Below, piece after piece: positions 900 through 20,700 of a stretch of 32,000 bases of DNA. The translations under genes and the position numbers were made by a program. Source of the stretch: Candidatus Harpocratesius repetitus (GTDB lineage: Archaea > Asgardarchaeota > Lokiarchaeia > Sigyniarchaeales > Promethearchaeaceae); the NCBI GenBank assembly GCA_021498095.1, contig JAIZWK010000001.1, forward strand, positions 3,720,001-3,752,000, given 5' to 3'. Below the pieces are notes generated by a model, which did not search any database, was not told the DNA's origin, and worked only from the letters and a program-made list of their open reading frames with translations. How positions within the stretch are numbered: the first letter of the stretch is position 1; the number at the start of each line of letters is the position of its first letter.

Positions 900-2792
900 A
901 TGGATTTTAACACATCATTGGAAAGAATGTACCAACTTTATTTAAAGATCGATCAAATGAAAAAAGTATCTCCTGGTTTTGGTGATTTTTATATAAAATA
1001 TCCGACTAAGTCGGGATTTGGCTTTTTATATATAATTCTAAGCCCACCAAATCGAAGGTATAAAGGAAAAAAAAAGGATGTTGACAAATTATTAAATAAA
1101 AGTGCCAAATCTAACAGAGTCATTGCTCCGAAAGATATTGATGAAATAATAAGATATTTATATCAAAACTTTCCAAAGATTATAAAATCTCGAAACGAAA
1201 TCCTTTCAAAAATTGAAGAAATAATTGCAGGTCTAAGATTAGAATTACATGTTTTCCATAATTTAAGGTTTCAATTTAAGGATCCAACAAAATCTGAAAT
1301 TATTGTATTTGAAAATTCTAATAACGGAGAATTTCATGCATATATCAATTTAGTTGGTATGGAAGAAAAAGGTTTAATCTTAGCTTATGAGCGCCAAATC
1401 AATTATATTCGAGAAAATTTAAAGAAAGGAATTCATCCTTTAAAACTAAAATCTCTCCCCCCATTACGTACAGGTGAAACTGATGTAGATTTTTCCAAAT
1501 CAAAATCATCTTCAAAAGCAACAAGAGAAAAACCGAAAGAAAGTGATTTAGTTCAAAAATTTAGAGAAAAAATAAAGCAAAAAAAAATTCAAGGTGAAGT
1601 TGATGAAGAACTTGCCTTTGAAACTGTAATTGATTTTAGTAATAAAGGAAGAGCGGCAATATCATTTAAAAATGAAGCAGAGATAGACAATACAAGCCAA
1701 ATTTCAGATGAAATTGCATCAAGTGATGTTATACAGAATGCTGAAACAAAAATGCTCAAAGATGCAATTAATGATGAAACTAAAATGGTAGGAAATACCA
1801 AATATTCCAATGATCAAACCGTTTCGAACCAGAATATGCATTTAAATGCAACAACACCCTCGAATATACCAATACCAACAAAACCATCACAGCCAAATCT
1901 TAGCCCAATACCTGAAAATGCCATACCAATTATTGATTCACCCCCATTTATTAATATTCCAAAACCTGCCCCACTTTCAAGAGAATCCGTAATATCAATA
2001 CCAGATAACAGAATAGAAAAAGGAGATTTAGCAAAACAAAATATTCAACTCAATCATAATAATAAAGATATACCATTCTCGATAGATTCATCTGCACCAC
2101 CACCATTGTCTCTTGAAGAAGGAGTCAAATTATCAAGCAAAATCACGTTTGATGAATATCAACAAATTCAAGAAGAAAGAGATCTTTTAAAAAATCAACT
2201 AGAACAAGTTACTGATGAATTAACAAAACAAATACAATCAAGAGACGAAAAAATTAAAGAATTGGATAAAAATCTCTCAATATTACATAATAAAAATAAA
2301 GAACTTGAAGATAAATATAATCAAATACAAAAAGAAACTCAAATAAAAATGAAAAATTTTCGAGATAAATTTCTAAAAATTCAAGAAAAAATTCAACCTT
2401 TAATTAAAGAAAACCAAGAGTTAAAGTTGAAATGGGAAAAAGAAGTCCACACTAAAAAAGTAACAGATAATATTCAATTAATTAATCAAAATCTCTCATT
2501 ACAAGAAGAAATTGACAAATTAAAAAACGTTAATGAAAAATTAATTAAGAAACTAAATGAACAAGAACAATTGATTAAGCGATTATCAGAATCGAAACAA
2601 AATCAGGAAATATCCAAAAATAAAAATGAAAATATTCAGAATGATCAAGAAAAAAAAGAAACAGCTCAAATATTAAAAAATGCACTTATGAATTCACTTC
2701 AAGAAAAACAAAAGCAACTTCAACATCAACAACAATTGGGACAAAACAATAAAGAAGTAAATAATAAAAGCAAAAAAAACAATGAAAATTAG
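900..2792 (+). CDS. Hypothetical protein: N-terminal globular domain, Pro-rich linker, long C-terminal coiled coil (630 aa)
   Basis: 1.9-kb ORF with AAGGAG upstream. Pro-rich segment PSNIPIPTKPSQPNLSPIP...SSAPPPL at about 1857-2107, then a heptad-like E/K/Q/L-rich region to the end. Confidence 0.85.
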   Translation: MDFNTSLERMYQLYLKIDQMKKVSPGFGDFYIKYPTKSGFGFLYIILSPPNRRYKGKKKDVDKLLNKSAKSNRVIAPKDIDEIIRYLYQNFPKIIKSRNEILSKIEEIIAGLRLELHVFHNLRFQFKDPTKSEIIVFENSNNGEFHAYINLVGMEEKGLILAYERQINYIRENLKKGIHPLKLKSLPPLRTGETDVDFSKSKSSSKATREKPKESDLVQKFREKIKQKKIQGEVDEELAFETVIDFSNKGRAAISFKNEAEIDNTSQISDEIASSDVIQNAETKMLKDAINDETKMVGNTKYSNDQTVSNQNMHLNATTPSNIPIPTKPSQPNLSPIPENAIPIIDSPPFINIPKPAPLSRESVISIPDNRIEKGDLAKQNIQLNHNNKDIPFSIDSSAPPPLSLEEGVKLSSKITFDEYQQIQEERDLLKNQLEQVTDELTKQIQSRDEKIKELDKNLSILHNKNKELEDKYNQIQKETQIKMKNFRDKFLKIQEKIQPLIKENQELKLKWEKEVHTKKVTDNIQLINQNLSLQEEIDKLKNVNEKLIKKLNEQEQLIKRLSESKQNQEISKNKNENIQNDQEKKETAQILKNALMNSLQEKQKQLQHQQQLGQNNKEVNNKSKKNNEN

Positions 2793-4075
2793 TTAATATC
2801 TTGCAGTAATTTTACTTTAACCTTCAGTTTTTCTGAAAGAGATTCTAATTCATCTTTCGATTTCTCAGGTGAAAATAGTAGAATATGTTCTTGTCCAAAT
2901 TCATCTAACTCAGAACAATAAGCATTAAATTTGTTCACTTGAAGATTAAAACATTCTGGTTTTTTTATATATTGTTTGATAAAATTATAAATACTCTTTA
3001 TCATCGGGATAATTATATTTACAGAAAAAACTGGTAAATCTGAAGTAGAAATTTCAAGCAAAATTTTATTATTTTGAATTACAATAACCCCAATTTTTTC
3101 CTTTTTAGTTAATTCTCCATTAATAGCATTACGAATTTGGTTTGCTCTCTCAGAGATATTACTCAAAATAATTTGCATTGCTTTAAATAAGGAAGAAATA
3201 AAATTAGGTTTAATACTTGTAAAAAAAAGTAGATTTTCATTAAAATTTAAAGATTTTACTATATTATCTTTGAATTCTCCCAATCTCTCTGGATTAACCA
3301 AATCAATTTTATGACATAATATAAAAAGATGAGGTTTTTCAGAACTTGATGAGACATGATTTAATTTAAACTGAATTTTTTTAAGATGATTGATAATATC
3401 ATGTGAGTTTGTCTCCCAATAGGGAGGATCAAAAACATACACAACCAAATCACATGCATCAAACGGATCAATCTCAGAATCAAACGAATCATATAAATAA
3501 TGTTCAATTTCTTGTCCTGCTAAATCTGCGATTCCAAGATCAAGATCGAAATAATCTATCTTATAATGTACTAATCCATATGTTGGTTCCATGGGTTTAT
3601 TTAATATTTCATCTGAAGTAGCGGATTCAAAGAAAATTTTTTTAATTGAGGTTTTACCCACTCCACTAGTCCCTAAAATCAATAACTTTCGAGACAATTT
3701 ATTAGAAAAAATATCATATGCGATCTGCTTGAAATACTCATTTCGTTGTGAATAATTAAGAGAAAAAAGATGAATCCCTTGTTTGTATAATTTTTCTTTA
3801 AAAGGTGCAATTTCTGATTGCTCGTCTTCATGAAATATAACAATTAACATTGAATATCCTAATTGCACAATTTTATCTTTTGGGCAAAAACTAATGATTA
3901 TTTTTTGTTGAAAGCGTAAATCGATAATTTCCGGTTGCTTTGTTTTGGAAATAGAATGAGACATAAGTACTTTATTAACTTCATCTTTTGATAGATGTAT
4001 TGATTTCGGAAAAGATTTCCGAATAATAGTTCCCATAGTTGAATCCCATTCAGTTAATACAATTCCGATAGGCAT
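2789..4075 (-). CDS. Rag/Gtr-like small GTPase with N-terminal longin/uDENN-like domain and C-terminal roadblock-like domain
   Basis: G1 GTSGVGKTS, G2 EPT, G3 DLAGQE, G4 HKID, G5 TSI; HKxD and TSI are Gtr1/RagA-type signatures. N-terminus GIVLTEWDSTMGTII..SFP fits a longin/uDENN start. The C-terminal ~110 aa has an alpha-beta-beta-alpha-beta-beta-beta-alpha roadblock pattern. Confidence 0.85.
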   Translation of the reverse strand: MPIGIVLTEWDSTMGTIIRKSFPKSIHLSKDEVNKVLMSHSISKTKQPEIIDLRFQQKIIISFCPKDKIVQLGYSMLIVIFHEDEQSEIAPFKEKLYKQGIHLFSLNYSQRNEYFKQIAYDIFSNKLSRKLLILGTSGVGKTSIKKIFFESATSDEILNKPMEPTYGLVHYKIDYFDLDLGIADLAGQEIEHYLYDSFDSEIDPFDACDLVVYVFDPPYWETNSHDIINHLKKIQFKLNHVSSSSEKPHLFILCHKIDLVNPERLGEFKDNIVKSLNFNENLLFFTSIKPNFISSLFKAMQIILSNISERANQIRNAINGELTKKEKIGVIVIQNNKILLEISTSDLPVFSVNIIIPMIKSIYNFIKQYIKKPECFNLQVNKFNAYCSELDEFGQEHILLFSPEKSKDELESLSEKLKVKVKLLQDIN

Positions 4076-4224
4076 CTTTCAAAATCGCTCTTTTCTTTTT
4101 GATCAAATATAGGAAAAATGAGCATAAATAATATTACATTTAAAATTCTTCTAAGATATAAAAAGAATTGTAAAATTGATATAAATGAAAAATTAATCTT
4201 ATTAATATTATTTCCAAAAAGAGA

Positions 4225-4731
4225 TTACCATAAAGAATCTGCAATATATTGAAACATTTCAACAATATTTTCACCAGTTTTTGCAGAAGTTGCAAAAACT
4301 TTTACATTATATTCAGATTCTAATTCTTTAACTACTTTTGATTCTTCTTCACTATTTAAGAGATCAATTTTATTCAAAGCTATTAAAAATGGAACATCTT
4401 TACCTGCATGTTTTCGAATATCCCCAATCCAAGGTTTGATGAAATCTGGAGTAATTCTATTATAATCTACGACAATTATGACAAAATTGCTATAGGATAA
4501 GTATTGTGAACGCATAGTTTCAAAACTTTTTTGTGATGCCAAATCCCATATTTGAACAATTAATTCATTTTTTTCTTTTTCACTCTTTTTTATAAAAGTA
4601 TACTCATAAAAATCAACGCCCAATGTCACTAAATAGGAATTTGAGAATGTTCCTTTGGTGAAACGGACAACAACTGAAGTTTTGCCCACTCCATCACTGC
4701 CAAGTAAGCAAATTTTTTTTTGAATTCTCAT
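4225..4731 (-). CDS. Rab-like small GTPase (168 aa)
   Basis: KKICLLGSDGVGKTS (G1), YLVTLGVDF (Rab effector-like G2), IWDLASQ (G3 variant), NKID (G4), SAKTGENI (G5). No C-terminal cysteine. Confidence 0.92.
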   Translation of the reverse strand: MRIQKKICLLGSDGVGKTSVVVRFTKGTFSNSYLVTLGVDFYEYTFIKKSEKEKNELIVQIWDLASQKSFETMRSQYLSYSNFVIIVVDYNRITPDFIKPWIGDIRKHAGKDVPFLIALNKIDLLNSEEESKVVKELESEYNVKVFATSAKTGENIVEMFQYIADSLW

Positions 4732-4748
4732 GATTAAATTTCATTCTC

Positions 4749-6230
4749 CTATACTATGGGAAGTAGTTCAATTTGTGGAAATCCTTTATCATAAATTGTC
4801 TTCATTGCAAACAAACTTGAGTTTCGAGGTTTTATGGAAAAAATCATTATAGTTCCGTGCCGTTCAATTACTTTTATATGTGTTGAAGCAATATAACTCA
4901 AATCTGCTGTTAATGTAGAATATTTTTCTAATTCATTTTTTTCATTTTTTGATGAGTTAATAATACCCAATTCAATAACATTTGAATTCCTTATTAACTT
5001 TAAGTGTTTATCAAAAAGTCCAATAGTTTTATTGAAATCTACCATGAATTGAAGATTATCATATGAAATACCAGCAAACACAGGTTGAAATTTGGAAATA
5101 CTTGAGAGTTTGGAATATGTATCAAAGAAAATTTCATTAAAGTTTTCATCGTCCACCTGACGAATATAAGGTCGAATTTCTTTTCTATCAGATATTTGAT
5201 TTTGAAGAATTTTCATATACTTGCTGATTCGATCTGTAGGTAAATAAAGAAACAATCTTTTTTTATCAAGTAGATCACTATTTATTCCATCGGATGCGCG
5301 AATTATGGCTCCACGTCCATTTTGAATAAATTGACAAAGTAGACCGATAAAAATCGAAGAAATAGAAGAAATTGGAACACTTGATTCCACTTCAAGTAAA
5401 TTAAATGTTCCAGGTCGTAATCCACCTCCATAAATTTCATCAAGTGCACGATTTCCTGTCGAAAAGAGATCTTCTTTATCAGTAGATGGTTCATACTGTG
5501 CAATATTAGTTAATTTCTCTTTTTTAAAGGGAGGTAAATATCTAAATTTATTCTGATAAAGTGTATAAGCATATTGTTTCTGTTTTCTTTCTACAGCACG
5601 AATTTTATTTATTTCTACTGTTCGAAATGTACGTCCTCCTATTTCACCATCACGTAAAGTAACAATTCCATCAACAATATAATCAAGAAATCCGTGTGTG
5701 TCTGATTCTGCGATTAATATTAATTTAGAATTACTTTGTCGTATAAATTCGGTAAAAAGAGTTTCCACTTGATCATTTTGATTACGCCCAGGCCCGATAA
5801 TCGCATCCCATGAATCAATAACAATTATTGGATTTTCATATTGAGCAACTTTCTCATAAATTATTTTTAAAAATTCAGGAATAGTCTGAAATCGAATTGT
5901 TTGCATTAAATGCTCTTTCATTTGGCTACCTTTAGGATCCTGCGTTGGAGGTATATAAGTTCGCGTTGCATCCAGAATATTTTCTGGAGCTAAACGATCC
6001 CTAAGCCAAGGAAACTGAGAATAAAGAGAAGAAGGAGCTACTCGAGTACTCAAATAAACAGGAGTAAATTCCTTAAAAAAAGATAATAAAGACATGGCAA
6101 AAGTTGTCTTTCCTACACCAGCACGACCTTTAAGAAGAAGATTATATCCTGTATCCTTCAATTTGAAGGCCGAAACAATTTCTGGAGGGATTAAAATATC
6201 ATCCTTATTTTTTTTCACTTTTTTTCCCAT
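4749..6230 (-). CDS. KaiC/RAD55-superfamily ATPase, GvpD P-loop-like, with an active N-terminal and a degenerate C-terminal RecA domain
   Basis: GYNLLLKGRAGVGKTT (Walker A), YLSTRV, LYSQFPWL, IVIDSWD (Walker B), DGIVTL, INKIRA. The second domain begins FSTGNRALDEIYGGGLRPG but has no Walker A. ATG at 6230 preferred; the track start at 6245 is GTG. Confidence 0.85.
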   Translation of the reverse strand: MGKKVKKNKDDILIPPEIVSAFKLKDTGYNLLLKGRAGVGKTTFAMSLLSFFKEFTPVYLSTRVAPSSLYSQFPWLRDRLAPENILDATRTYIPPTQDPKGSQMKEHLMQTIRFQTIPEFLKIIYEKVAQYENPIIVIDSWDAIIGPGRNQNDQVETLFTEFIRQSNSKLILIAESDTHGFLDYIVDGIVTLRDGEIGGRTFRTVEINKIRAVERKQKQYAYTLYQNKFRYLPPFKKEKLTNIAQYEPSTDKEDLFSTGNRALDEIYGGGLRPGTFNLLEVESSVPISSISSIFIGLLCQFIQNGRGAIIRASDGINSDLLDKKRLFLYLPTDRISKYMKILQNQISDRKEIRPYIRQVDDENFNEIFFDTYSKLSSISKFQPVFAGISYDNLQFMVDFNKTIGLFDKHLKLIRNSNVIELGIINSSKNEKNELEKYSTLTADLSYIASTHIKVIERHGTIMIFSIKPRNSSLFAMKTIYDKGFPQIELLPIV

Positions 6231-6446
6231 ATCTTGATCAATCACAACTGTAATGATTAATTAATCAACCCGCTACCCTATAAAATTTTCTTCTTTTCGT
6301 TAACAATTCAATTGTAATTAACGCATTTTTGATCTATTCACTAAATAATACTTTGATCTCTCCTAATAGTTTAAATATAGAACTACAAAGAACATGTATT
6401 TTTTAATTGTACAAAAATTTAATTCTAACTGTAATTTTATTTAAAT

Positions 6447-7987: not shown

Positions 7988-8051
7988 TTTTAATTAAAGA
8001 AGATCAAAAGTTATACCAAAGAATTTAGCAATAACTCACATCTTTTTATTG

Positions 8052-9563
8052 ATGGTAAAGAAAATAGTGTTAGTAGGATCGAGCTCAGCTGGAAAATCCA
8101 CACTGAGAAAATGGTTTTTCGAAGGGGAAAATATCTTTAAATTATTGGAAAATCCATTAGAGCCGACAATTAGTTATGAAAACAAATCTTACCGTTTCAT
8201 TCAAGAATTATATGTGTTCGATTTAGCCGGTCAAGAAGTAGATAGATGGTTTGGGAATCAGCAAGAAATTTTTGATGAAAGTGAAGTAATTATTAATGTT
8301 ATTGATGCTCGTAGCGCTCCAAAAATAATTACAGATTACATTACAAAAGCATTACCATTACAATCTAGCCGAGTGAAAGATGCGGATATCTTTTTTCTAA
8401 TTCATAAAGTTGATCTTATTGATACATTTCAGCAGGATAAAATAACCAAGGCTTTAAACGAACTAAAACGCAAAATAAATGAACAAGAAGGTGTTAGTTT
8501 TAAATGGTATTTTACCTCTATAAAACCATCCTATTTAGTTAGCACAATAAATGCTTTCGCAGATATTTTTAAAATATCAGGTCTTGATCGAGAAGCAAAA
8601 TTGAATATTAAATTGGTTCGCCTGAATACTGAGTTATTCCAAACACTTTCTGAGAAACACGAAGTTTCGATGGAAAATTTATCATTATTGCTAAAAGGAA
8701 CTTATTCTAAAATACAAAGCTTGGTCACATCTTATAAAGATTCAGGATTATTAGAAACAAAAGAAAAAAATGGAGTAATATTTGTTTCATTGACGAAAAG
8801 GGGAGAATCCTATTATGAACAAGTTATTAAAAGTATTGAATTGTTGTTTAAAGAAGAATTACATGAAAAGATTTCAGAAGAAGTGCCTTTTGAAGAAAAA
8901 ATTCAAATACCTTCTTATTGGATTTATGGAATTATGATTAGTGACTCAAATGGAAGAACATTATTAATTGCAGAAACATCAGATAACAGTTTGAAATCAA
9001 TATTAAATCGAGCAAATAACCCACAATTCGATCTTGAGTTAATTCCGATGTTTTTGAATGCAATGTCAAAATTTGCTGAAGAAATAAATGTTAAAAATTT
9101 ATCTAGTTTTCAAATTCAAGGCGGAAATTTACAAATGTCTTCATTATCTCGAGGAAATATAACATTTACTGTATTTTCAAATCCAGAATTTAAAATAGAA
9201 TTGGTTCAAGATGAAATAACTGCAATTTTTGACGAATTCTTTAATAATAATTTAAAATATATTAATGAATTTGAAAAATCAGGAAATGCTACTCCTTTTA
9301 TGGAATTTATTCCTGAAATTAGGGAAAAGATAGAATTAGTCATTAAGAATTACGTTAAAATTTTAAAAGAAATCTCATATTTCAGTTTTGATGAAGTAAA
9401 ACGGTTATATGATGAACTTTCTCATGTAAATGAAGATAAATTAACACTAGAAGAACAATTAAAGATAAAATCGCTAAAAGTCAAATTACTAGAAACTATA
9501 TTAAAAGAAAATGCTAAAGAATTTCTTGCAATAGAAGAAGATATACGTTCATGTATCAAATAA
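8052..9563 (+). CDS. Rag/Gtr-like GTPase fused to a MarR-like winged HTH and a longin domain
   Basis: G1 GSSSAGKST, G2 EPT, G3 DLAGQE, G4 HKVD, G5 TSI. Central LFQTL..VSMENLSLLL..SKIQSLV..SGLLE...VSLTKRGE fits a wHTH. C-terminal YGIMISDSNGRTLL..LIPMFLNAMSKFAEEI..PFMEF fits a longin. ATG at 8052 follows the TTG at 8049. Confidence 0.85.
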   Translation: MVKKIVLVGSSSAGKSTLRKWFFEGENIFKLLENPLEPTISYENKSYRFIQELYVFDLAGQEVDRWFGNQQEIFDESEVIINVIDARSAPKIITDYITKALPLQSSRVKDADIFFLIHKVDLIDTFQQDKITKALNELKRKINEQEGVSFKWYFTSIKPSYLVSTINAFADIFKISGLDREAKLNIKLVRLNTELFQTLSEKHEVSMENLSLLLKGTYSKIQSLVTSYKDSGLLETKEKNGVIFVSLTKRGESYYEQVIKSIELLFKEELHEKISEEVPFEEKIQIPSYWIYGIMISDSNGRTLLIAETSDNSLKSILNRANNPQFDLELIPMFLNAMSKFAEEINVKNLSSFQIQGGNLQMSSLSRGNITFTVFSNPEFKIELVQDEITAIFDEFFNNNLKYINEFEKSGNATPFMEFIPEIREKIELVIKNYVKILKEISYFSFDEVKRLYDELSHVNEDKLTLEEQLKIKSLKVKLLETILKENAKEFLAIEEDIRSCIK

Positions 9564-9761: not shown

Positions 9762-10793
9762 TTGGTCCTTAAGCGCGCAACTCAAAAAACTGAAATACAA
9801 TCGCAGATCTCATCTAAATATAAGATAATCGTTGAAGGAATCCATAAAACATACTTGTTAGGTACCACTGCAGTCCCCGCATTAAGGGGAGTTGATCTAA
9901 AAATTAAACCTGGTGAATTTGTAGGTTTAATGGGTCCATCGGGGTGTGGCAAAACAACACTTTTAAATCTAATTGGGGGTCTTGATTATCCTACTCGAGG
10001 AAAAATATACTTAGATAATCAAGATATGTCAAGATTAGATGAAAATCAACTTGCAGATTTACGTCGAGACAAAATAGGTTATGTCTTTCAATTCTATAAC
10101 CTTCTCCCTCTGTTAACTGCTTTAGAAAATGTAATGATACCCCTTCATTTTCAAGGTAGATTATCAAAACGTGCAAGAAAACGAAAAGCAATGGAATTAT
10201 TAAAACTTGTAAAACTTGATGATCGCGCTGATCACACACCCTCTGAATTATCTGGTGGAGAACAACAAAGAGTTGCAATTGCCCGTGCATTTGCTAATGA
10301 TCCATCCATAGTATTACTTGATGAACCAACAGGTGATTTAGATTCGAAAACTGGAATTGAAATATTGAATTTATTACGAGATCTGAACAGAAAAGGTGCC
10401 ACTTTTATTGCAGCAACCCATGATGCAGCGGTTTCTGAATATTGCTCCAGAGTAGTACACTTAAGAGACGGAAAGATAATTACAGGATTAGAAATCTCTG
10501 GTCTGAAGGAAACTCCTGAAATGCGTGAAGCGCGATTAAAGCTTCAAGCTCAATATAAAGAAATGTGTGAAAATAAGATTTTATCAATAGTTAGAGAACA
10601 AATACAACAGCAAAAGTATGAAATCCGATTGGCTTTTATAAAAGAGCAAATTGATGATGAAATCATTACTAATTTACCATTGCATTTTGATGATTTAGTT
10701 GAAGAATTAATTGAACGTAAAGAATTTAACGGTCAAGTTAAAAGTGGTGTTATTTATATACAAAATCCTCAACAAGGATCTGATATCGTTTAG
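9762..10793 (+). CDS. ABC transporter ATP-binding protein, LolD/MacB/SalX family, with a ~100-aa C-terminal PCI-like winged-helix extension
   Basis: Walker A GPSGCGKTT, Q-loop GYVFQFYNLL, signature LSGGEQQR, Walker B LLDEPTGDLD, H-loop ATHD. TTG start. Confidence 0.93.
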   Translation: MVLKRATQKTEIQSQISSKYKIIVEGIHKTYLLGTTAVPALRGVDLKIKPGEFVGLMGPSGCGKTTLLNLIGGLDYPTRGKIYLDNQDMSRLDENQLADLRRDKIGYVFQFYNLLPLLTALENVMIPLHFQGRLSKRARKRKAMELLKLVKLDDRADHTPSELSGGEQQRVAIARAFANDPSIVLLDEPTGDLDSKTGIEILNLLRDLNRKGATFIAATHDAAVSEYCSRVVHLRDGKIITGLEISGLKETPEMREARLKLQAQYKEMCENKILSIVREQIQQQKYEIRLAFIKEQIDDEIITNLPLHFDDLVEELIERKEFNGQVKSGVIYIQNPQQGSDIV

Positions 10794-10835
10794 TACTTTA
10801 AGAAGATTTACTTCAAGGAGATTGAAATAGCATCA

Positions 10836-13703
10836 ATGAATACATTTCTTTGGACTTATGCAATTAAAGATTTATTTCGTCAGAAAACCCGAACTTTATT
10901 CGGTATTTTGGGGATAACTGTAAGTTTACTTCTATTAACTTCTGTTTCTATTATCACAGACTCAGTCTCTTATAATTTTATTGACTTTCTTACACTCGAT
11001 GCTGGAACACAGGATATGGTTCTTTCAAAAAGACCAATTTCCACTAATGATGAAAATTTTACAGGATATTTTGATTTTCGAGAAATAATTCCAAAAATTC
11101 ATAATGCAACTAATGAAATAGGGAATATAGTTCCTAGAGGATATTTTAGAAGTGAGATTTTTAACGGAAATGAAACAATGGTGTCAAATCAAAACAAGAT
11201 GTGGATATGCGCAATAGATATTGCTTTAGAAGAAGAAATAAAATTTGGTTCATTTCAAAATTTGAATAATAACCTAAATATTTCAAATGGTTTACCTGTT
11301 AATCAATGTATAGTTTCTGAAAGTTATGCTAGAACAAATCAACTTAATATAGGAGAAAAAATCCATCTTTTCGTTAAACCATTAAACTCAACAATAAACC
11401 TTACTATTGCAAGCACATATGGTCAAAAATTGAAATTTCCTATCGACGAAGAACCTGAAATCATAGTAGATCTCACTTGGTGGGGAAACATTGCAGATTT
11501 ATTTAATAATAATTCTAATTTTGCTGAAAATAATACATGGAATTATAAAGTTAATAGATTACTACTCAAACTCAGTGATGCTGAAGGAGTGTATGATGTT
11601 CGCAATGTTAAAGGAACAGAGAGTTATATTGCTCAGATAGGTGCAAAAATCTTAACAGAATTAGGATTAGATTCGTGGAAAATGGATTATCCAAAATTAG
11701 AGTTATTGTTTGTATCTGAATTTTTAACTTTAACTATGAATATTTTATTTATCACCATTGGAATTATTTCTATGCTTATTTCAGGTATTTTAATTAATGC
11801 GATTCTTTCAACTTCTGTAGAAGAGAGAATTAAGGAGTTTGGAATAAATAGAGTACTTGGTGCACGAAAAACATATAATCTGAAATTAATCTTAATTCAA
11901 AGTTCATTTATTTCGTTTAGTGGAACAACTTTAGGAATTATTTTAGCCGCTTTAGCAATAAGATATATTGGAATACCATTTGGAGAAAGATTGCTGGTTG
12001 AAAATGGGATTTATACTTCAATTGCCTTTTTTATAGATCCAATGACAATCATTTCCTCTTATCTTATAGGTGTAGGAGTCTCAATGGTTGTCTCTATTTC
12101 TCCAGCATTAAAAGTTATGCGAATGAAAATTGTCGAAAGTATTAATCCATATAGAACATCTGATGAAGTATACCATATGGAAAAAGAAGGAAGTGCCAAT
12201 GTCCGCCTTATAATTATTGGAATTATATTGGCTGCAAATGCTGGGTTCATCTACTTCTTGCTTCCGCGAATAATTATTTCTTTTCAATTCGGAATTCTTG
12301 CCTCAGTTTTAATTATCACCATGATGGTATTCCTAATCGGCGTTTCAGTAATGGCAATCGGATTTATGCCGATATTAATTCGATTACTTGTGAAGATATT
12401 TGAAACATTTAATCAAAAACTGATGAATATTGTAAGAATCACAGTTCACAGATATCAACGTCGCAATTTGTCGACAAGTATCATGTTTGTACTCTCTTTT
12501 TCCTTTATAATTTTTACAACAAGTATGGTTCAAATCCAGATTAAACAAGTAGGTGGTTTAATTCAATATGAAGAAGGTTCAGATTTAGTCCTTCGACCAG
12601 ATAGCTATGATTTAAGAGCACCAACAGTAGCAATCACAGAAAAATTATTGCAAATAGATGGAATTGAGCGGGTTTCTTCAGTAATTGCAAGTGTAAACGA
12701 TTTAGAAGACATATATTCTGAAGAAAATAAAGATTTTGAAATCACCCTAGGGGATTATATTAACTTTCAATCTACTGAAGTAAGGATGTATGCAGTAGAT
12801 GAAAATTATATCGATACAGTTTATCAAAATTATATCATATTTACAGAAGGAAATAAAGAGTCGGCATTTAATGCTCTTTACAATACTTCTGAAATAGGAG
12901 TTATAATTTCTGCTTCAATAGCTTCAAGTCTCAGAATTCATTTAGGAGATATTGCAAGATTAACAATCACTAGAGGCACGGAAGAAGAACCATTTCTTTG
13001 CAGAATTGTTGGAGTTGCAAAGTCCATGCCCGGGATGCAATCACGCTTCAGTGAAAGCGGAATTGGTGCAGCTTTTAGAGCCGGTGGTGTTTTGATATCC
13101 CCAGAGCACTATACAGAATGCATGAACATTCCTGGTGGAAATGATGCATTTTTAGATAAAATCTTTATTAAAGTAAAATCAGGTTATGATCCTTTAAATG
13201 TTGCATCCAATATTGAATCTAAATTAAAAAATAATTATAAAATAGAAGTGGATGTTACCTCTCAAGGAATTAATGAAGCAGAGCAAGCATTTTTAGTTGT
13301 CAAATATTTATTTCTAGCAATTTTAATTGGAACTGTACTAATTGCATTATTTGGATTAATCAGTTCATCATATTCATCTATCTTAGAAAGAAAGCGAGAA
13401 ATTGGAATTTTACGAACATTAGGTCTTCATGGTCGAGAAATTGAACACTTATTCTTATTAGAAAACTTAATACTACTATTATCAAGCTCAACTTCAGGAG
13501 GTATTATCGGATATTTAATGGCGCTTGGTTTGAGTGAAAATATGACCCTTTTTATCCGAAGTCCGCGAATTATTGCCGTGCCATGGGATATTATCTTGAT
13601 TGTTTATTCAGTATCACTAGTTACTTTATTTATTGGAATGAGATGGTTAATGCGCAAATTAAGAAAGCAAAATCTAATAGAGATATTTAGAGAAACATTA
13701 TAA
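10836..13703 (+). CDS. ABC permease, FtsX/MacB (SalY/LolE-like) family, tandem two-module type (permease A)
   Basis: N-terminal RQKTRTLFGILGI before TM1, a large extracytoplasmic domain, SVEERIKEFGINRVLG and ILERKREIGILRTLG FtsX motifs, and many hydrophobic helices. Confidence 0.92.
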   Translation: MNTFLWTYAIKDLFRQKTRTLFGILGITVSLLLLTSVSIITDSVSYNFIDFLTLDAGTQDMVLSKRPISTNDENFTGYFDFREIIPKIHNATNEIGNIVPRGYFRSEIFNGNETMVSNQNKMWICAIDIALEEEIKFGSFQNLNNNLNISNGLPVNQCIVSESYARTNQLNIGEKIHLFVKPLNSTINLTIASTYGQKLKFPIDEEPEIIVDLTWWGNIADLFNNNSNFAENNTWNYKVNRLLLKLSDAEGVYDVRNVKGTESYIAQIGAKILTELGLDSWKMDYPKLELLFVSEFLTLTMNILFITIGIISMLISGILINAILSTSVEERIKEFGINRVLGARKTYNLKLILIQSSFISFSGTTLGIILAALAIRYIGIPFGERLLVENGIYTSIAFFIDPMTIISSYLIGVGVSMVVSISPALKVMRMKIVESINPYRTSDEVYHMEKEGSANVRLIIIGIILAANAGFIYFLLPRIIISFQFGILASVLIITMMVFLIGVSVMAIGFMPILIRLLVKIFETFNQKLMNIVRITVHRYQRRNLSTSIMFVLSFSFIIFTTSMVQIQIKQVGGLIQYEEGSDLVLRPDSYDLRAPTVAITEKLLQIDGIERVSSVIASVNDLEDIYSEENKDFEITLGDYINFQSTEVRMYAVDENYIDTVYQNYIIFTEGNKESAFNALYNTSEIGVIISASIASSLRIHLGDIARLTITRGTEEEPFLCRIVGVAKSMPGMQSRFSESGIGAAFRAGGVLISPEHYTECMNIPGGNDAFLDKIFIKVKSGYDPLNVASNIESKLKNNYKIEVDVTSQGINEAEQAFLVVKYLFLAILIGTVLIALFGLISSSYSSILERKREIGILRTLGLHGREIEHLFLLENLILLLSSSTSGGIIGYLMALGLSENMTLFIRSPRIIAVPWDIILIVYSVSLVTLFIGMRWLMRKLRKQNLIEIFRETL

Positions 13704-13798
13704 AATAGTTAATAATTAGGAGGCGTGAGAAAATTACTATAAAAAGAAAATTTAAAATACTTTTGCATGAGTTTTTTATTCAAAAAAACCGAAAAAGC

Positions 13799-16700
13799 AT
13801 GAAACAAAGATTAATATTGACTATTCTATTATTCTGCTTTCTTTCACCTTCAATTTTACTTAGTTTTCAAAATAATTTTATTAAAATAAGATTAGAAAAT
13901 AATAATAATAATAAAACCAAACCATCAATTTTTTCTCCAATTTCATCTGACATATCTGGAAATGAATTATATGCAGAGCAAATTAAGTTTAATATTGGTG
14001 GATCTCACAATTTAATTCAACAATCTTATTGTACTAATGACACCAACGCACTAGATGGAATTGATTTATCAGATCCTGCATTTTCTGAAGCTGCATTTTT
14101 TTTAACTCTATCGAATGGAATTATCCCTGAAATCAATCCTTATCCAATTAACAACAAGAATCCGAATTATATACCCATTTCTATGAATTACTTCAAGTTT
14201 TATCTATATTTTGAAGGAGGAAGTATTTCGAAAAATATATCCACCCAACAAGATAGAATATTAGAAATTCTTAAAAATAGACTTAAAATAGATTTTCTCC
14301 TTTTAAATAAAACTGAAGATCCTAATAAGGGATATTTATATGAATATTATGGTTTGACACCAGAATGGAGTAATTATTTTGATTTAACTTTATCAAATGT
14401 ACCTCAAGATGGATATTGGAAAACACTAGATTATGACCGAATTCTCTCAAATTCCTATTTAGATACACATTATATTCAAAGTTCATTACTTTACTTGAAG
14501 AAATTTGATTTTTTAAAGAATGGTATAAATTCAATGATTTATGATCAGATTAAATTATCATTTGATCTCTCTCCTCTACAGAGCAGTAATTCACTATTTA
14601 ATGTAGCATCTTTTCAAAATACCAATGCTGATTCAAATGATCAATCAAATACAAATTCAAGCGAGAAATCCTATATTAATAGAACAAATAATTTAATTTT
14701 CTTTTCTGTACAATATGAAGGAATTGAAAATTCTGAAATACAACAAAAATCTCACATTTATCATTTCAATCTTTTTGAAGCGTTAAATTTTAATGGTTCT
14801 GAAATTTCAATATCTTCTAAATGTTATAATTCTCCAGACGGAATATCATTAAGTAAAATCGATATTGGGTTAATATTTGGAGAAGTTACTAAAATGGAAC
14901 CAGATATTTTTCCATTCAATACAGCGAGCTTCGACCAGATTGAAAATCTTCTCTATATGTTTAATGAAGATGCAGATTTTTCGTTTTTTGATGATTACAG
15001 TTTCAAAGTCAAATGGATTACAAAAAATTCGTTAACCATGTTATCAACTGTTCCTGTAAATTATAAAAATAGTTCAGATTATGTAAATTTCTTAGAATTA
15101 CTTATGGATTTTCCAGAACTGGCATCATTACTTAATATTTCAATGGATGTTTCGGGAGGTTTTGGATTTGGATTATCTGGCAGTTATATTGCTCCAATTG
15201 AAGAGCTTTCATTCGATTATATCATTGCTCCAGTTGAACCATCTCTTGAAATTAGGAAAGAGATTAAATCAGGCAAACCAACAAATGTTTTAGATGCAAA
15301 CAATAGTCCAACAATAGATGTCGTTGTAAGTAATCCAAATAACTTCTCAGTTTGGGGAAAAGAACTTAATTTAACTGCATTAGGAATTACAAACAATCCA
15401 ACAGCAAAATTAACTATTTTAGGTTTAGATCAAAATATGTTTGAATTAATGGGTTATAACAGTGATTTAATTGTTAATATTTTAGAATCTCTAGGTTATA
15501 CCATTGAAGATCTCTTTCATCAAGACAATCCGCGCTTTTTTATGTTGGATTTGAACAATACAGGAAACTATAATACGCTTTATCCAAATCTTCTAGATCT
15601 AAATGTTAATAGATTATTTCCTTACAGTCCTGAATTTACTCAACTTCTTATCGATAATGCAGATGCATTTGGTAGAATTGCATTGAACCCACAGATTTGG
15701 AATTCTTCAGAAAGTATCTTCAATCCAGAGAATTGGAAATTAGACCCAGGTGAAAACTTCTCAATTACAATAAATAGTGGTCTTTTAAATGTGAGCGATA
15801 AATATGCTAAGATTCAAGGATTCTCATTAAATACTCGATCACCTCATGAACCAATTATTGCAATAGGTCAAGAAAATATAGAAACTTCAGCCAATAATAC
15901 ATTTTTTCCAAATGATGATTTATTCTGGGAAATTTCTTCTGAATACTACGGAAATACATACCAGATTCAACAATATCTTTTTTTTAATAATAATACAAAA
16001 ATTCTTCATATTAATAATAATACAATAAGTCTGGATGCGATTTTTCTAAATTTAATTGCAAAGAGTAGCAATCAAGATACAAGTTTCCAAATTGAAATCT
16101 ACAATCATGATTATACAGGAGAAAACAGAGATGGATTTCAATCAATTTTAAGTGGAACTATAGGTAATGAAATGACTCAGATTAATTTAACACTATCAAA
16201 TAATGACTACAATTTAAGCAATTTCTGGGATAAAAATCAGAATATGGATATTTTGTTCAGAATTACATATGAAAATAATGAACCCTTCAACTTCTATCTT
16301 GATTTTATTCAAGTAGAATTTCAAGATCGTATAAATCAAAGAATTTTTCATAATCAATCTCAAATACTTTATTGTTCATCATATGGAAATAATCAGTACT
16401 TCAGTAAATCGAACTCAATTACATTAATGACTTCTCAAAGTGCAATTATATCAATATCAAGCCAAATTTCATTAATAGATAATAAATCTTCACTGTATTT
16501 GTATAACGTATCCTTAGAAAATATTGGAACACTTCCTGCATATAATATTACGGTAAAATTGCTCCAGATGGGCAGAATTCCGAATTTACTTAATCATACA
16601 CTAATACAAATTGCAAATAAAACAACATTTCAAAGTATTGCTGGAAATTATTCTTTAACAGAAGGAATTTTATCATTTTCATATAGAAATTTAACAAACC

Positions 16701-17791
16701 AGCAGAAAATTCAAAATATTTCATTGTTATTTTATCTTCCAAATAGTATTATTTTTCCTTCACTAAATGTAAGTTGGAATAACGAAATTCAATTTAATGA
16801 AACAAATACTCAAATGAATGCAATTTCATATCAAGATTTCCTTTCATTCCCTTTAGATTATAATAAATCGAGAAATTATAATCCACTATATCAATTATTA
16901 ATCGAATATCTCAATCCAGATGATTCTAGTTATTATAAAATAAATCAGAATGTTTCTATATTTATTCGTATTTCTAACTTAAATTCAGAGTCGATTTTTG
17001 GAATAGATCTTCAATTTAGCAAATCTTTTGAAGGATGGCAATATTTGAACCAATCAGATCATATTTATATAAATGAATTAAGTTATAATCAATCTAAAAC
17101 GATTGAATTAATCTTTTTTAAGATAAATACTCGTGGATATTTGCTCCCTTCAGCATTCCAAATTCATTGTGAAGAGAATAGTTTATTACAAGTATTTTTA
17201 CCGCCACCTCTTTTACTAGGTCATTTTGAGGTAGAATTAACTAAAGCAATTTCCCAAGATGTGTTAATAACAGGGGATTATATTGAAATTACAATAAATA
17301 TTAAGAATTCAGGAACAATTCCTTTATCGGATGTAATTATTGATGATGCGGATTCATATTTTGCAGGAGCATTTATCTTATATGAAGGTATAACACTTCA
17401 AGAAATTAGTTTTCTTGACATAAATCAAACCTTTGAATTTCATTATTCGCTTAGAGCTTTACATTCAAAGGGTTCTTATAGTATACGTCCTGCAGAAATA
17501 TCATATTTCTTCGGATCTTTATATTACGTTTATAGTAATTCGATTTTAGTTAAAATTCAAGAGCCTTATATATTGATAGTAGCAAAAATTATCAGTCCGA
17601 TATTAGTAGGTGGATTAGCGTTATTTTTAACATATAAGTATAAAATTCATTATTCAAAAGAAGATTTTGAATATCAACGCCGTGAAAGTTTGTTATTTGG
17701 TCAATCATTAAGAGAATCTTCATGGCATCGAAAGAATCTAACAGAATTTTTCAATGAGCAAATGGAAAAAGGTGGAAAAAAAAATGAGTAA
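13799..17791 (+). CDS. Large membrane-anchored cell-surface glycoprotein with C-terminal DUF11/CARDB/BatD-like Ig domains
   Basis: Signal-like MKQRLILTILLFCFLSPSILL from ATG 13799 (track start 13763 is TTG). Many N-x-S/T sequons. VELTKAISQDVLITGDYIEITINIKNSG is a DUF11-type motif. TM helix at about 17570-17640, then a ~50-aa charged tail. Confidence 0.85.
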   Translation: MKQRLILTILLFCFLSPSILLSFQNNFIKIRLENNNNNKTKPSIFSPISSDISGNELYAEQIKFNIGGSHNLIQQSYCTNDTNALDGIDLSDPAFSEAAFFLTLSNGIIPEINPYPINNKNPNYIPISMNYFKFYLYFEGGSISKNISTQQDRILEILKNRLKIDFLLLNKTEDPNKGYLYEYYGLTPEWSNYFDLTLSNVPQDGYWKTLDYDRILSNSYLDTHYIQSSLLYLKKFDFLKNGINSMIYDQIKLSFDLSPLQSSNSLFNVASFQNTNADSNDQSNTNSSEKSYINRTNNLIFFSVQYEGIENSEIQQKSHIYHFNLFEALNFNGSEISISSKCYNSPDGISLSKIDIGLIFGEVTKMEPDIFPFNTASFDQIENLLYMFNEDADFSFFDDYSFKVKWITKNSLTMLSTVPVNYKNSSDYVNFLELLMDFPELASLLNISMDVSGGFGFGLSGSYIAPIEELSFDYIIAPVEPSLEIRKEIKSGKPTNVLDANNSPTIDVVVSNPNNFSVWGKELNLTALGITNNPTAKLTILGLDQNMFELMGYNSDLIVNILESLGYTIEDLFHQDNPRFFMLDLNNTGNYNTLYPNLLDLNVNRLFPYSPEFTQLLIDNADAFGRIALNPQIWNSSESIFNPENWKLDPGENFSITINSGLLNVSDKYAKIQGFSLNTRSPHEPIIAIGQENIETSANNTFFPNDDLFWEISSEYYGNTYQIQQYLFFNNNTKILHINNNTISLDAIFLNLIAKSSNQDTSFQIEIYNHDYTGENRDGFQSILSGTIGNEMTQINLTLSNNDYNLSNFWDKNQNMDILFRITYENNEPFNFYLDFIQVEFQDRINQRIFHNQSQILYCSSYGNNQYFSKSNSITLMTSQSAIISISSQISLIDNKSSLYLYNVSLENIGTLPAYNITVKLLQMGRIPNLLNHTLIQIANKTTFQSIAGNYSLTEGILSFSYRNLTNQQKIQNISLLFYLPNSIIFPSLNVSWNNEIQFNETNTQMNAISYQDFLSFPLDYNKSRNYNPLYQLLIEYLNPDDSSYYKINQNVSIFIRISNLNSESIFGIDLQFSKSFEGWQYLNQSDHIYINELSYNQSKTIELIFFKINTRGYLLPSAFQIHCEENSLLQVFLPPPLLLGHFEVELTKAISQDVLITGDYIEITINIKNSGTIPLSDVIIDDADSYFAGAFILYEGITLQEISFLDINQTFEFHYSLRALHSKGSYSIRPAEISYFFGSLYYVYSNSILVKIQEPYILIVAKIISPILVGGLALFLTYKYKIHYSKEDFEYQRRESLLFGQSLRESSWHRKNLTEFFNEQMEKGGKKNE

Positions 17792-20700
17792 ACAATACTA
17801 TACTAAAAAATTCTCTTATTTTCTTTTTATCTCTTTAATTCTTCTTTCTAGTACCTTATTAGCAAATAATCCAGTTAGTTTTATAAATTCACAACATATT
17901 CAAGAAAAAACTAATACAATTAATAAATTGATATCTAGGAACGACAACAACATCAAAAACGTTCAAATTAAAAGTGCTTCAAATCCATTCGATAATAAAA
18001 CACATAGATTTTTATTTTTATATTCAAATCCAATTACAATAGATGATAATGTAACATTATTTAACCTTTTCACTTCTCTAGGAGGAATTATTAAAGAAGA
18101 ACCTTGGAACCACATTAATGGATTTTCAGGAACAATAAACAATTCACAAGAATACCTGGGTTCCTTTATAGCCTCTTTTCCTCCAGTGGATTATTTTGAA
18201 GATCCAATAGCAGAAATTCAAATGAATTCAATTCAAGATCAGATTAACTACTACCCAGAAATATACAATATGAATAATTTTAGCATTAAAGGAACTTCCA
18301 ACGCATCGATAGCGATAATTGATACTGGTGTTGATATTTCCCATCCATTTTTTAATAATTCTTATCAAGATGAAAATTTTTCAAAGAAAATTATTGGATG
18401 GACAGATGGAATTTCCAATTTCAGTCAACCTTATGATGATAATGGGCATGGAACTGCAATGAGTGCTATTATTGGGGGGAGTAATAATGTTTCAGCTATG
18501 TCCAATCATTCGAATAATGAATTTTACCTTACTAAAACTGCATCCATTAATCATGAAGAATATTTCTATCCACATTATCTTTCTGAAGGATGGTATGATA
18601 TTAAATTAGGATCTTTTGAAATGGATGAAAATGCATTAGATATTCTTAATATTACCGCAAATCTGACCATATTTTCACCTATGCTTGAATATAGGTTAAG
18701 ATTGTATAGAAATGGAAATATTATTAATGAAACTTCCAGTATTCCATTAGAATTAACATGGGACACTTCAGGATTTTTCGATACTTCCAAAAAACCAGGA
18801 GTTTATGATATTGTTTTTTCTTATCATAAAAATCTTGAACAGAATCCACAATTTTCGATACAAATTCAAGCATTATTTACTCCTAAAGAATATCCTAGTG
18901 ATACAAGCGAATATTCTGGTTTAGCACCAGAAACACATATTTCAATGATAAAAGAATTGAATTCTTCAGGTAAAGGATATATCTCAGATATAATTTCTGG
19001 ATTAGAACATGTTATCACTAAAATTCAATCAAAGCATATAATAACTCTCCTACTTTCAATCGCAACGATAGAGATTCCTTCAAGTTTGGAGAACCCGTTC
19101 AAACAACTAATTGATGAAATTATAAAAAAAGGTTGTATGGTTATTTTTGCAGCTGGAAATTTCGGAATATCAAATAAATTAAACGCAATGGCACTTAATG
19201 ATAAAGCTTTAGTTATAGGAGCGACCAATGATCAAGATCAACTAACCTATTATAGTTCTCAAGCTGATGATAATAAGAACAATCGTATGCCTGATCTATT
19301 AGCCCCAGGAGGTAGTTTATTAGTCAATCATCAAATGGTAATTACTGCAGATTCGAATATGGGAGATAATAATAACCAAACAAAAGATTTAATAAAAAAT
19401 GATTTATCTGGTTTTACCGGAACTTCAATTTCAGCAGCAGTTGTAGCGGGAATTTACAATTTAATTGTTGATTATTTAGGCGGATGGAATTATTGGAATT
19501 CAGGAATAAATGCTACCTTAGAAGCTTTGAAAATAAAAAATTACCTTTTAATGACAGCTTCAGAGACAAACCAAGCCCGCGAAGATAATCCTTTCACACC
19601 ATATGATGAATCTACAAATAGTCCTATAGTAAATAGAGGTCAAAAAGATAGATTTGAGGGTTATGGTAGAATGAATCCAGAAGCAGTATTTAATATGCTC
19701 CAAAATAGCATTGATTTAAACCATAATTACCAGATAGAACTTACTGCATCAAATAGTGATCCATTCTCGCAGCACGTTTTTGCACTTAATGTTTCACTTG
19801 AAAAGGACCAAATTTATCTTTTTAATTTGACAAATGATGAAGGAATTTTTTCAAATTTTGATATAGATATGTATTTATACAATAAAGATTGTTCATTCTC
19901 AGGAGAGCCGATTTTAGAAGCATCTTCGACGCAAGCGGGCAGTTCAGATGAAATTATTTATTTTACTAATCTAAATGCCAGCGATACTTTTTACTTAGTT
20001 ATTAAGGCTTTATCAGGTTCTGGTTCATGTTCATTACAAGTCACGAAAGTAAATTTGACAAATGCTCCAGCATTAAACAATCCAAAAGTGAATATTGATT
20101 CAGAACTAAATTACAATGATACATTAGACACTTACCGATTTGAAGTTAATTACACACAAGATGATAATGTTCCAGCGACTTTAATTGATATAATCTTTCC
20201 TTCTTTGTCTAAAAATTATTCATTAATTCAATCTGTTGAAGGAGACACTAATTATGAAAATGGTGCGATTTATTATGTTGAAGTTAAATTTCAGAATCCT
20301 GGAAATTATTCATATTACTATTTTGCCAGAACAGGAAATTTATCCATCTATTATTTGAAAAACAATTCTCAATCTCTAATTATCAATCCAATTCATCATT
20401 TTGTTGGCAATAATTTCACCACAGTGCATAATTCAGACATCAATCTCTGGGATTTTGATCAAGATTCAAAAAATATTTACTTAAATAATAAAATGAATGA
20501 ATATAGAATAGGATGGCAAAAAATTAGTATTCCACAATTATATGAAAACCGATATTTACGCACTCAAGAAGACAACTGGTCTGCTTGGTATTTTGGAATT
20601 GCTAATCCTAACAATTTATATTCAAGCCCCATCCTAATTGATCAAACTCCTTTATATACTTATGAAAATATATCAGGAACTTATGATTTATATTCTCCGA

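Follow-up and report, generated by a model that had tools for sequence, protein, structure and literature searches.

A longin-Rag GTPase-roadblock protein of a Lokiarchaeial archaeon: a C9orf72-like motif, no conserved arginine finger and two conserved gene-order relationships

Rag GTPases and longin-domain GTPase-activating proteins (GAPs) form the core of amino-acid sensing in eukaryotes, and the origin of their partnership is the wider question on which the locus described here bears. The present study concerns a stretch of 32,000 nucleotides from Candidatus Harpocratesius repetitus (assembly GCA_021498095.1, the single 4.36-Mb contig JAIZWK010000001.1, positions 3,720,001 to 3,752,000 of the forward strand), hereafter the window, in whose own numbering positions are given. 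On its minus strand, at 2789..4075, lies a gene for a protein in which a longin domain, a Rag-type G domain and a roadblock domain follow one another in a single chain, here called the longin-GTPase-roadblock (LGR) protein. What, then, is the longin for in a chain that already contains a Rag-type GTPase, and with which partner does that chain work? Our answer, held with somewhat better than even confidence, is that the LGR protein is a Rag-like dimer switch whose longin would serve as a docking or regulatory face.

There is strong support for a genuine gene, conserved and belonging to a Lokiarchaeial (Harpocratesius-like) Asgard archaeon. According to the list of open reading frames and its translation, a frame of 428 codons fills the interval on the minus strand, and stops occur throughout the plus strand of the same interval; since the G+C content of the window is only 26-33%, chance would not be expected to yield so long a frame. 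A chance frame is also contradicted by full-length homologues, which reach from 81% down to about 25% identity and support a complete coding sequence, stop codon included. Re-translation of the DNA returned the N-terminus MPIGIVLTEWDSTMG...SFP, followed by GTSGVGKTS (residues 135-143), EPTYG (163-167), DLAGQE (184-189), HKID (255-258) and TSI (286-288). The closest protein, 81% identical, is from 'Candidatus Harpocratesius sp.', and further matches come from Promethearchaeota. We have little doubt about the anatomy and family of the 428-residue product, namely a longin (residues 1-124), a Rag/Gtr G domain (129-305) and a roadblock (309-427).

The central domain (3161..3691, minus strand) was assigned to the Rag/Gtr type, rather than to Arf or Rab, on the agreement of Pfam, a phmmer search of Protein Data Bank (PDB) sequences and structural alignment of predicted models with VIA. 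Gtr1_RagA (PF04670) scored 64.4 bits on residues 130-344 against a cut-off of 22, compared with 22.7 bits for Arf and 20.2 for Ras; across the family alignment it matched 31 of 31 members (best E 1.7e-29), compared with 23 members for Arf (best E 3.5e-11). Gtr1 and RagA also headed the phmmer search with the LGR protein. On the same strand lie the G1/P-loop GTSGVGKTS (3647..3673), whose G135, G140 and K141 do not vary across the family; the G3/switch II DLAGQE (3509..3526), with D184, G187 and the catalytic-position Gln188 invariant; the G4 HKID (3302..3313), of the Rag-type HKxD form, with K256 and D258 invariant and H255 nearly so; and the G5 TSI (3212..3220), with S287 invariant, as is T165. 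When isolated G domains were compared by VIA-align, RagD (Z 18.4) and RagC (Z 17.6) stood above Arl (about 16). Tran et al. 2024 (PMC10933270), who surveyed 74 small GTPases of the strain MK-D1, add the caveat that the Asgard 'Rag-like' class is structurally near Arf too.

The C-terminal domain (2795..3151, minus strand) qualifies, in the predicted structure, as a Rag-type roadblock contiguous with the G domain and equivalent to the C-terminal domain of Rag/Gtr proteins. A full-length AlphaFold2 model, built from an 11-sequence alignment (predicted local distance difference test, pLDDT, 82; predicted template-modelling score, pTM, 0.65), gives residues 309-427 the roadblock topology alpha-beta-beta-alpha-beta-beta-beta-alpha; Pfam returned no significant match for residues 300-428 alone. 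With this model the top 39 Foldseek matches were all Rag/Gtr chains or Loki Rag-like crystal structures, and in VIA-align the G domain together with its tail matched Rag/Gtr chains at Z 19-21 over 263-282 aligned residues, reaching model residues 422-428. Because of the G-domain scores, these structural matches and the invariant nucleotide-binding residues, the LGR protein is a Rag/Gtr-type GTPase, and very probably an active one.

The N-terminal domain (3704..4075, minus strand) is supported, on predicted structure, as a longin/uDENN fold lying nearest to the GAP-longin subgroup that comprises the NPRL2, FLCN and C9orf72 class. Folded alone by AlphaFold2 from a 43-sequence alignment, it reached a pLDDT of 93 and a pTM of 0.88, and its topology, also seen in the full-length model, is beta-beta-alpha-beta-beta-beta-alpha-alpha, which is the longin order and not that of a roadblock. 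The structure search was run against all representatives and ranked by Z-score, and Foldseek's list was then re-scored. At the head stood chain B of a GATOR1 entry (Z 12.7, root-mean-square deviation 2.6, 122 of 127 residues), which, judging from its length and the chain order, is probably NPRL2. There followed the crystallised Loki longin domain 8yqg (Z 11.8), a chain of the SEA complex (Npr2/3; Z 11.2), Lst4 (Z 10.2-10.7 over the searches), a C9orf72-SMCR8 chain (Z 9.8), DENND1A (Z 9.5), FLCN and FNIP2 chains (Z 9.2), the longins of AP sigma, SNARE and TRAPP proteins (Z about 8-9) and roadblocks (Z at most 8.3). In the re-scored list, NPRL2-size chains from six GATOR1 entries gave Z 10.8-12.8 (deviation 2.6-3.0, 120-123 of 127 residues), with DENND1A/B at 10.2-10.4 and C9orf72 at 9.6-9.8; Foldseek itself gave three matches under E 1e-3, all of them GATOR1 chains. 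A shape search of the ESM Atlas was led by Asgard hypothetical proteins, followed by eukaryotic NPR2 (template-modelling score 0.75-0.76), C9orf72 (0.75) and DENND11 (0.72). An analogy with the SRX-SRbeta pair was dropped, SRX chains lying low in the lists (Z 7.8-8.7).

Sequence searches did not reach this domain: Pfam gave nothing significant for residues 1-128, nor for the 43 N-domains scanned one by one, and a profile of the domain found no match among PDB sequences. Consequently, its typing as a longin rests on the predicted structure and on a short motif. No DENN family was matched by Pfam in the LGR protein, and what follows the longin, residues 129-428, is G domain and roadblock, not DENN/dDENN. 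A preliminary description of this DNA, made from the letters alone, had proposed a single gene here with the N-terminal start, HKID and TSI given above and the order longin/uDENN, Rag G domain, roadblock; it had further likened the N-terminal domain to the longins of NPRL2, FLCN and C9orf72, called the C-terminal domain roadblock-like and placed the G domain with Gtr1/RagA instead of Arf or Rab. The re-translation, the Pfam scores and the structural comparisons bear out all of these points.

The short motif is W10-D11-x3-G15-T16 (4028..4048, minus strand), at the beta1-beta2 turn, and its family form is W-D-x3-G-(P/S/T). Conservation among the 43 N-domains is highest at M1, W10 (40/43), D11 (37/43), G15 (39/43) and P23 (43/43), and position 16 is Pro in 16, Ser in 14 and Thr in 5. 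Human C9orf72 has an essential W33-D34 and, at its beta1-beta2 turn, the 'GP motif' G38-P39, which marks the GAP longins C9orf72, SMCR8, FLCN and NPRL2 and is lacking in other longins (Traffic 2025 survey, PMC12290439). The W-D-x3-G-P spacing of the LGR family is identical to that of C9orf72. In the structural alignments, C9orf72 chains from four PDB entries had residue 23 or 24 set against model residue 1 of the N-domain, so that W10, D11 and G15 fall on W33, D34 and G38. This modelled register is consistent with the motif match, although it comes from alignment end-points only and is no proof.

An arginine finger is what makes NPRL2, FLCN and SMCR8 catalytic. In longins of the FLCN/SMCR8 type it is held in the beta4-beta5 loop, which in the LGR protein is encoded at 3851..3892 of the minus strand (SFCPKDKIVQLGYS), reads PKDKIVQLG and holds K66 and K68. 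Column counts over the 43 N-domains show no conserved arginine in this loop, position 66 being Lys in 24 of the 43 and position 68 Lys in 20 and Arg in 7. By the known rules the N-domain is therefore not a self-sufficient GAP; in its predicted fold and motif it is like the C9orf72 side of a longin GAP, the side that has no finger. The strong reading of the preliminary description, in which a GTPase is fused to its own GAP, is thus not supported.

Separately, about 7 kb from the LGR gene, the same genome encodes a stand-alone longin of 169 residues (G000:C1:3715118-3715627; L047:619-1128, plus strand) that has a G-P turn and an A-R-G before beta5. With this arginine-finger signature of the FLCN/SMCR8 type, it is a conceivable partner in trans for a finger-less N-domain. 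A profile comparison of the two aligned 18 columns at a probability of 0.4, from which no specific kinship can be claimed.

How widely is the fusion kept, and how strongly? An exhaustive profile search returned 111 representatives at E<=1e-30, of which about 40 cover all three domains and about 40 align over residues ~128-420 only, that is, in the plain G-plus-roadblock form of Rag-like proteins. The three-domain architecture is common to some 40 clusters at 50% identity, and the source genome alone has about 14 strong genes of Gtr1_RagA type. Where orthologues share about 50% of their residues overall, identity amounts to 57% in the longin and 57-61% in the G domain but falls to 27-31% in the roadblock; since the longin is conserved as much as the G domain, it is under functional constraint.

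Relatives of the longin also occur by themselves. Stand-alone Asgard longins of 125-140 residues share the W-D-x3-G-P start, and one in the source genome (G000:C1:2146506-2146865; L048:495-869, minus strand) matches the N-domain by BLASTP at E 5e-12. Of 400 genomes of the phylum, 298 gave a match to the N-domain profile, in many cases because of such small longins. A split form of the fusion, with a W-D-x3-G-P longin standing beside a Rag-like gene, was found in none of 20 loci. As a separate observation, some of these longins lie beside genes for proteins of 525-680 residues with a weak GTPase-like stretch; in class-level relatives (L049, L051, L054) they are directly downstream of genes for such proteins of 525-666 residues, the weak stretch being central, and in the source genome an open frame of 599 or more residues with a weak GTPase-like stretch lies about 2.3 kb from the 125-residue longin L048:495-869.

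A telling clue to a partner came from gene order. On the plus strand, at 8049..9563, the window carries a second Rag-like GTPase of 504 residues (Gtr1_RagA, 60.7 bits), with its G domain N-terminal and a long C-terminal part. A full-length homologue of this protein is encoded directly downstream of the best LGR-like gene (about 10 nucleotides away or overlapping) in 24 of 27 loci outside the LGR gene's own family, nearly all of them in a sister family within the order; of the three loci that depart from this, one is cut off by the contig end. Six 10-kb loci from five genera bear out this adjacency in the sister family. Within the own family, the LGR and 504-residue genes share one neighbourhood, about 4 kb apart in the source genome, and in another genome of the family (L045) a paralogous copy of the LGR gene lies 2 kb downstream of a 504-type gene that shares its strand. 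The longin-Rag-roadblock protein and the Rag-like protein with a long C-terminal part are thus linked across the order. In loci L038-L043 the downstream homologues measure 501-560 residues, and L041 has one on each side of its LGR-like gene.

Taken together, these results point to the following picture. The LGR protein would act as a GTP/GDP switch within a Rag-like dimer, pairing through its roadblock tail in the manner of Gtr1-Gtr2 and RagA-RagC. The likeliest candidate partner would be the linked 504-residue paralogue, because the two gene families travel together, both as the sister-family operon and as near neighbours here; we hold this particular pairing tentatively, at a little short of an even chance. 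The N-terminal longin would be a docking or regulatory face and probably not a self-contained GAP, because it keeps the C9orf72-like W-D-x3-G and lacks the arginine finger; a regulatory and non-catalytic role for it seems to us an even bet. It may touch the G domain of the partner or that of a Rab-like GTPase encoded upstream, or it may recruit an arginine-finger longin in trans, and either contact would tune the nucleotide state. In the AlphaFold2 model a linker of about 4 residues leads from the longin into beta1 of the G domain, and this geometry suggests a place for the longin close to the base of the G domain, next to the roadblock tail. A bolder version, in which the LGR protein and the 504-residue paralogue are an archaeal counterpart of RagA-RagC, with a C9orf72-like GAP 'half' in cis completed in trans by an arginine-finger longin such as the stand-alone one about 7 kb from the LGR gene, is a long shot. 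Complex prediction for the LGR protein and the 504-residue paralogue gave ipSAE values of 0.17 and 0.20 against a mark of 0.32; controls were not run, and the result counts neither way. For MK-D1 proteins of such architectures, Tran et al. 2024 (PMC10933270) give predictions both of Rag-like heterodimers and of dimers mediated by longins and roadblocks.

Several observations weigh against this picture. Titles of PDB entries describe Loki Rag-like proteins as monomers (8zla, 9m28) and as a homotetramer (8yl2), and therefore a heterodimer in the Rag style is not to be assumed. In the own family the two Rag-like genes are separated by other genes and read in opposite directions. The likeness of the N-domain to eukaryotic GAP longins is one of structure, which neither Pfam nor the PDB sequence search echoed, and the LGR protein itself has Thr, not Pro, after G15, in a family where just 16 of 43 members have G-P. 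Furthermore, in a quick maximum-likelihood tree built from 50 rows the backbone stayed without resolution, and two-domain forms of G domain and roadblock were interleaved; for this reason we speak of the sister-family LGR-like genes as closest relatives and not as orthologues.

One of these crystal entries bears on a rival account, which we rate unlikely, in which the LGR protein is a self-contained homodimeric switch. Longin would pair with longin and roadblock with roadblock, the longin would be mainly a second dimerisation module, and the neighbouring Rag-like gene would not be needed. The homotetrameric Loki Rag-like protein (8yl2) and the Loki longin domain found as a dimer in its crystal (8yqg) speak for it, as do, in Tran et al. 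2024 (PMC10933270), AlphaFold2 predictions of homodimers for similar MK-D1 proteins and the general tendency of roadblock and longin domains to dimerise. What it leaves unexplained is the conserved adjacency with the 504-residue family and also the conservation of W-D-x3-G, a motif that C9orf72 has in its catalytic pocket rather than at its dimer interface (PMC12290439).

Gene order could also be read in favour of a different client. The LGR gene closes a co-directional row on the minus strand, headed by a KaiC/GvpD-like P-loop ATPase of 498 residues (4749..6245; GvpD_P-loop 68 bits, KaiC 45 bits) and continued by a Rab/Ras-like small GTPase of 168 residues (4225..4731; Pfam Ras, 106 bits) directly upstream of the LGR gene. 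The gap between the first two is 17 nucleotides and that between the Rab-like and LGR genes 149. The order KaiC-like, Rab-like, LGR recurs where LGR identity is 81%, 51% and 50% and in two more genomes of the own family; the Rab-like and LGR pair is still present at 32% LGR identity (L007), and the KaiC-like and Rab-like pair precedes the LGR gene in every own-family locus examined and in L007. In a further reading, which we rate rather improbable, this putatively co-transcribed Rab-like GTPase docks on a platform like that of MglB or Mon1-Ccz1, formed by the longin and roadblock of the LGR protein; the latter would regulate it as GAP, guanine nucleotide exchange factor (GEF) or effector, and the KaiC-like ATPase would join them as a third component. 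Such an arrangement would suit both the persistence of the row, from 81% to about 32% LGR identity (L001-L005, L007, L022/L044, L032), and the role of longin/roadblock pairs as known small-GTPase platforms (PMC10933270), but the row is limited to the gene's own family, the sister-family LGR-like genes being without it, and the LGR protein has a fully intact G domain of its own, for which a pure regulator would have no need. Separate transcription is possible too, given a 149-nucleotide spacer with T-runs and a TATA-like stretch. Very improbable, finally, is an intramolecular GAP, in which the longin bends back onto the G domain of its own chain and contributes catalytic residues to it, giving a one-chain version of GATOR1-RagA or FLCN-RagC. 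The fold class and the G15 turn do match those of GAP longins, and the basic K66 and K68 lie in the very loop that holds the finger in FLCN/SMCR8-type longins, but neither position is a conserved arginine, and all known longin GAPs work as longin heterodimers. The short linker joining beta1 is a further obstacle: in Ras-like folds, the beta1 end of the G domain lies away from the nucleotide pocket. We retain, as the reading we favour, a Rag-like dimer switch with a docking or regulatory longin.

The remainder of the neighbourhood can be described briefly. In the spacer between the Rab-like and LGR genes (4076-4224, minus strand), oligo-T runs come right after the Rab-like stop codon, and TTTATAT lies about 75 nucleotides before the ATG of the LGR gene. 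The gene may thus have its own promoter, a matter not judgeable by eye at 26% G+C; a promoter and terminator scan found no more sites than in shuffled sequence, using bacterial sigma-70 patterns that are uninformative for an archaeon. Convergent with the LGR gene, and overlapping its 3' end by 4 nucleotides, is a gene for a 630-residue protein of no known family (900-2792, plus strand), for which neither a Pfam family nor a usable ESM Atlas lead was found. Together with a 142-residue gene before it (26-454), it is a conserved neighbour in L001-L005, L007 and L044. On the other side, an acetyl-CoA-synthetase-like gene and the 504-residue Rag-like gene diverge from the row. Farther away, a co-directional cluster (9762-25633, plus strand) encodes, by Pfam, an ATP-binding cassette (ABC) ATPase, two FtsX/MacB-type permeases of about 960 residues, a 1342-residue protein with a TRAP-beta-like stretch and a 1652-residue subtilase.

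How much of this is new? Longin-GTPase-roadblock Rag-like proteins are known from MK-D1 (Promethearchaeum syntrophicum), e.g., WP_147663355.1 and WP_147663503.1, and the supplement of Tran et al. 2024 tags such sequences '-LGR' (PMC10933270). Longin-Rag fusions had been reported by Liu et al. 2020/21, and Loki Rag-like and longin structures are already in the PDB (8yl2, 8zla, 9m28, 8yqg). Since 2024 the architecture has thus been on record for a related Asgard archaeon, and the value of the present work is incremental: it adds that the N-domain has a C9orf72-type motif, lacks an arginine finger and is strongly constrained, and that two conserved gene orders point to candidate partners. Accordingly, of the 'Rosetta-stone' fusion put forward in the preliminary description, the joining of a Rag GTPase to a regulator-type longin stands and its freshness does not; the proposed link to the origin of TORC1 is speculation. 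In Asgard archaea, a search by Liu et al. brought up no TOR kinase domain homologue. Nevertheless, the Traffic 2025 survey (PMC12290439) asks whether Asgard GP-motif longins act with Rag/Gtr or with Arf-related GTPases, and the covalent union of such a longin with a Rag-type GTPase provides circumstantial evidence that their partners include Rag-like GTPases. Should the half-GAP in cis with a finger in trans prove true, the Rag/longin-GAP partnership of GATOR1, FLCN-FNIP and C9orf72-SMCR8 would have arisen in a fused archaeal module predating TOR. The LGR protein is small and soluble-looking and would be well suited to biochemistry.

Compared with known systems, the MK-D1 proteins are the nearest: they share the domain order of longin, Rag-like G domain and roadblock, come likewise from Lokiarchaeia and have a similarly Rag/Arf-borderline G domain. 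They differ in species and paralogue, and in the available portion of Tran et al. 2024 their domains are typed merely 'longin' and 'RB', with neither the C9orf72-like W-D-x3-G motif nor a linkage to the 504-residue Rag-like family. With eukaryotic RagA-D and Gtr1/Gtr2, the LGR protein has in common a G domain with HKxD and TSI set directly before a roadblock, with the Z-scores of 19-21 given above, whereas the eukaryotic Rags have no N-terminal longin and are only 16-22% identical in sequence; they are obligate heterodimers that signal to TORC1 on Ragulator/EGO, and the LGR protein is likened to them by sequence and predicted fold only.

On the longin side, the best structural match of the N-domain is the longin of NPRL2 (GATOR1) and Npr2 (SEACIT), from which the LGR protein differs in lacking both the conserved finger-loop arginine and the NPRL2 C-terminal domain. 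C9orf72 shares the fold, a consistent register, the W-D-x3-G-P spacing and the want of an arginine finger of its own; in C9orf72, however, a DENN region follows the longin, the LGR protein has Thr at the Pro position, and the two show no detectable sequence homology. More generally, the longins of GAPs lead into DENN or NPRL2-type C-terminal regions, whereas that of the LGR protein leads into a G domain and a roadblock. With the DENN Rab GEFs, built as uDENN-DENN-dDENN, only the uDENN-like fold is common (as for DENND1A/B above), the DENN and dDENN parts being absent from the LGR protein. Stand-alone Asgard longins, in turn, are single-domain proteins not fused to a GTPase, yet they are clearly homologous to the N-domain of the LGR protein.

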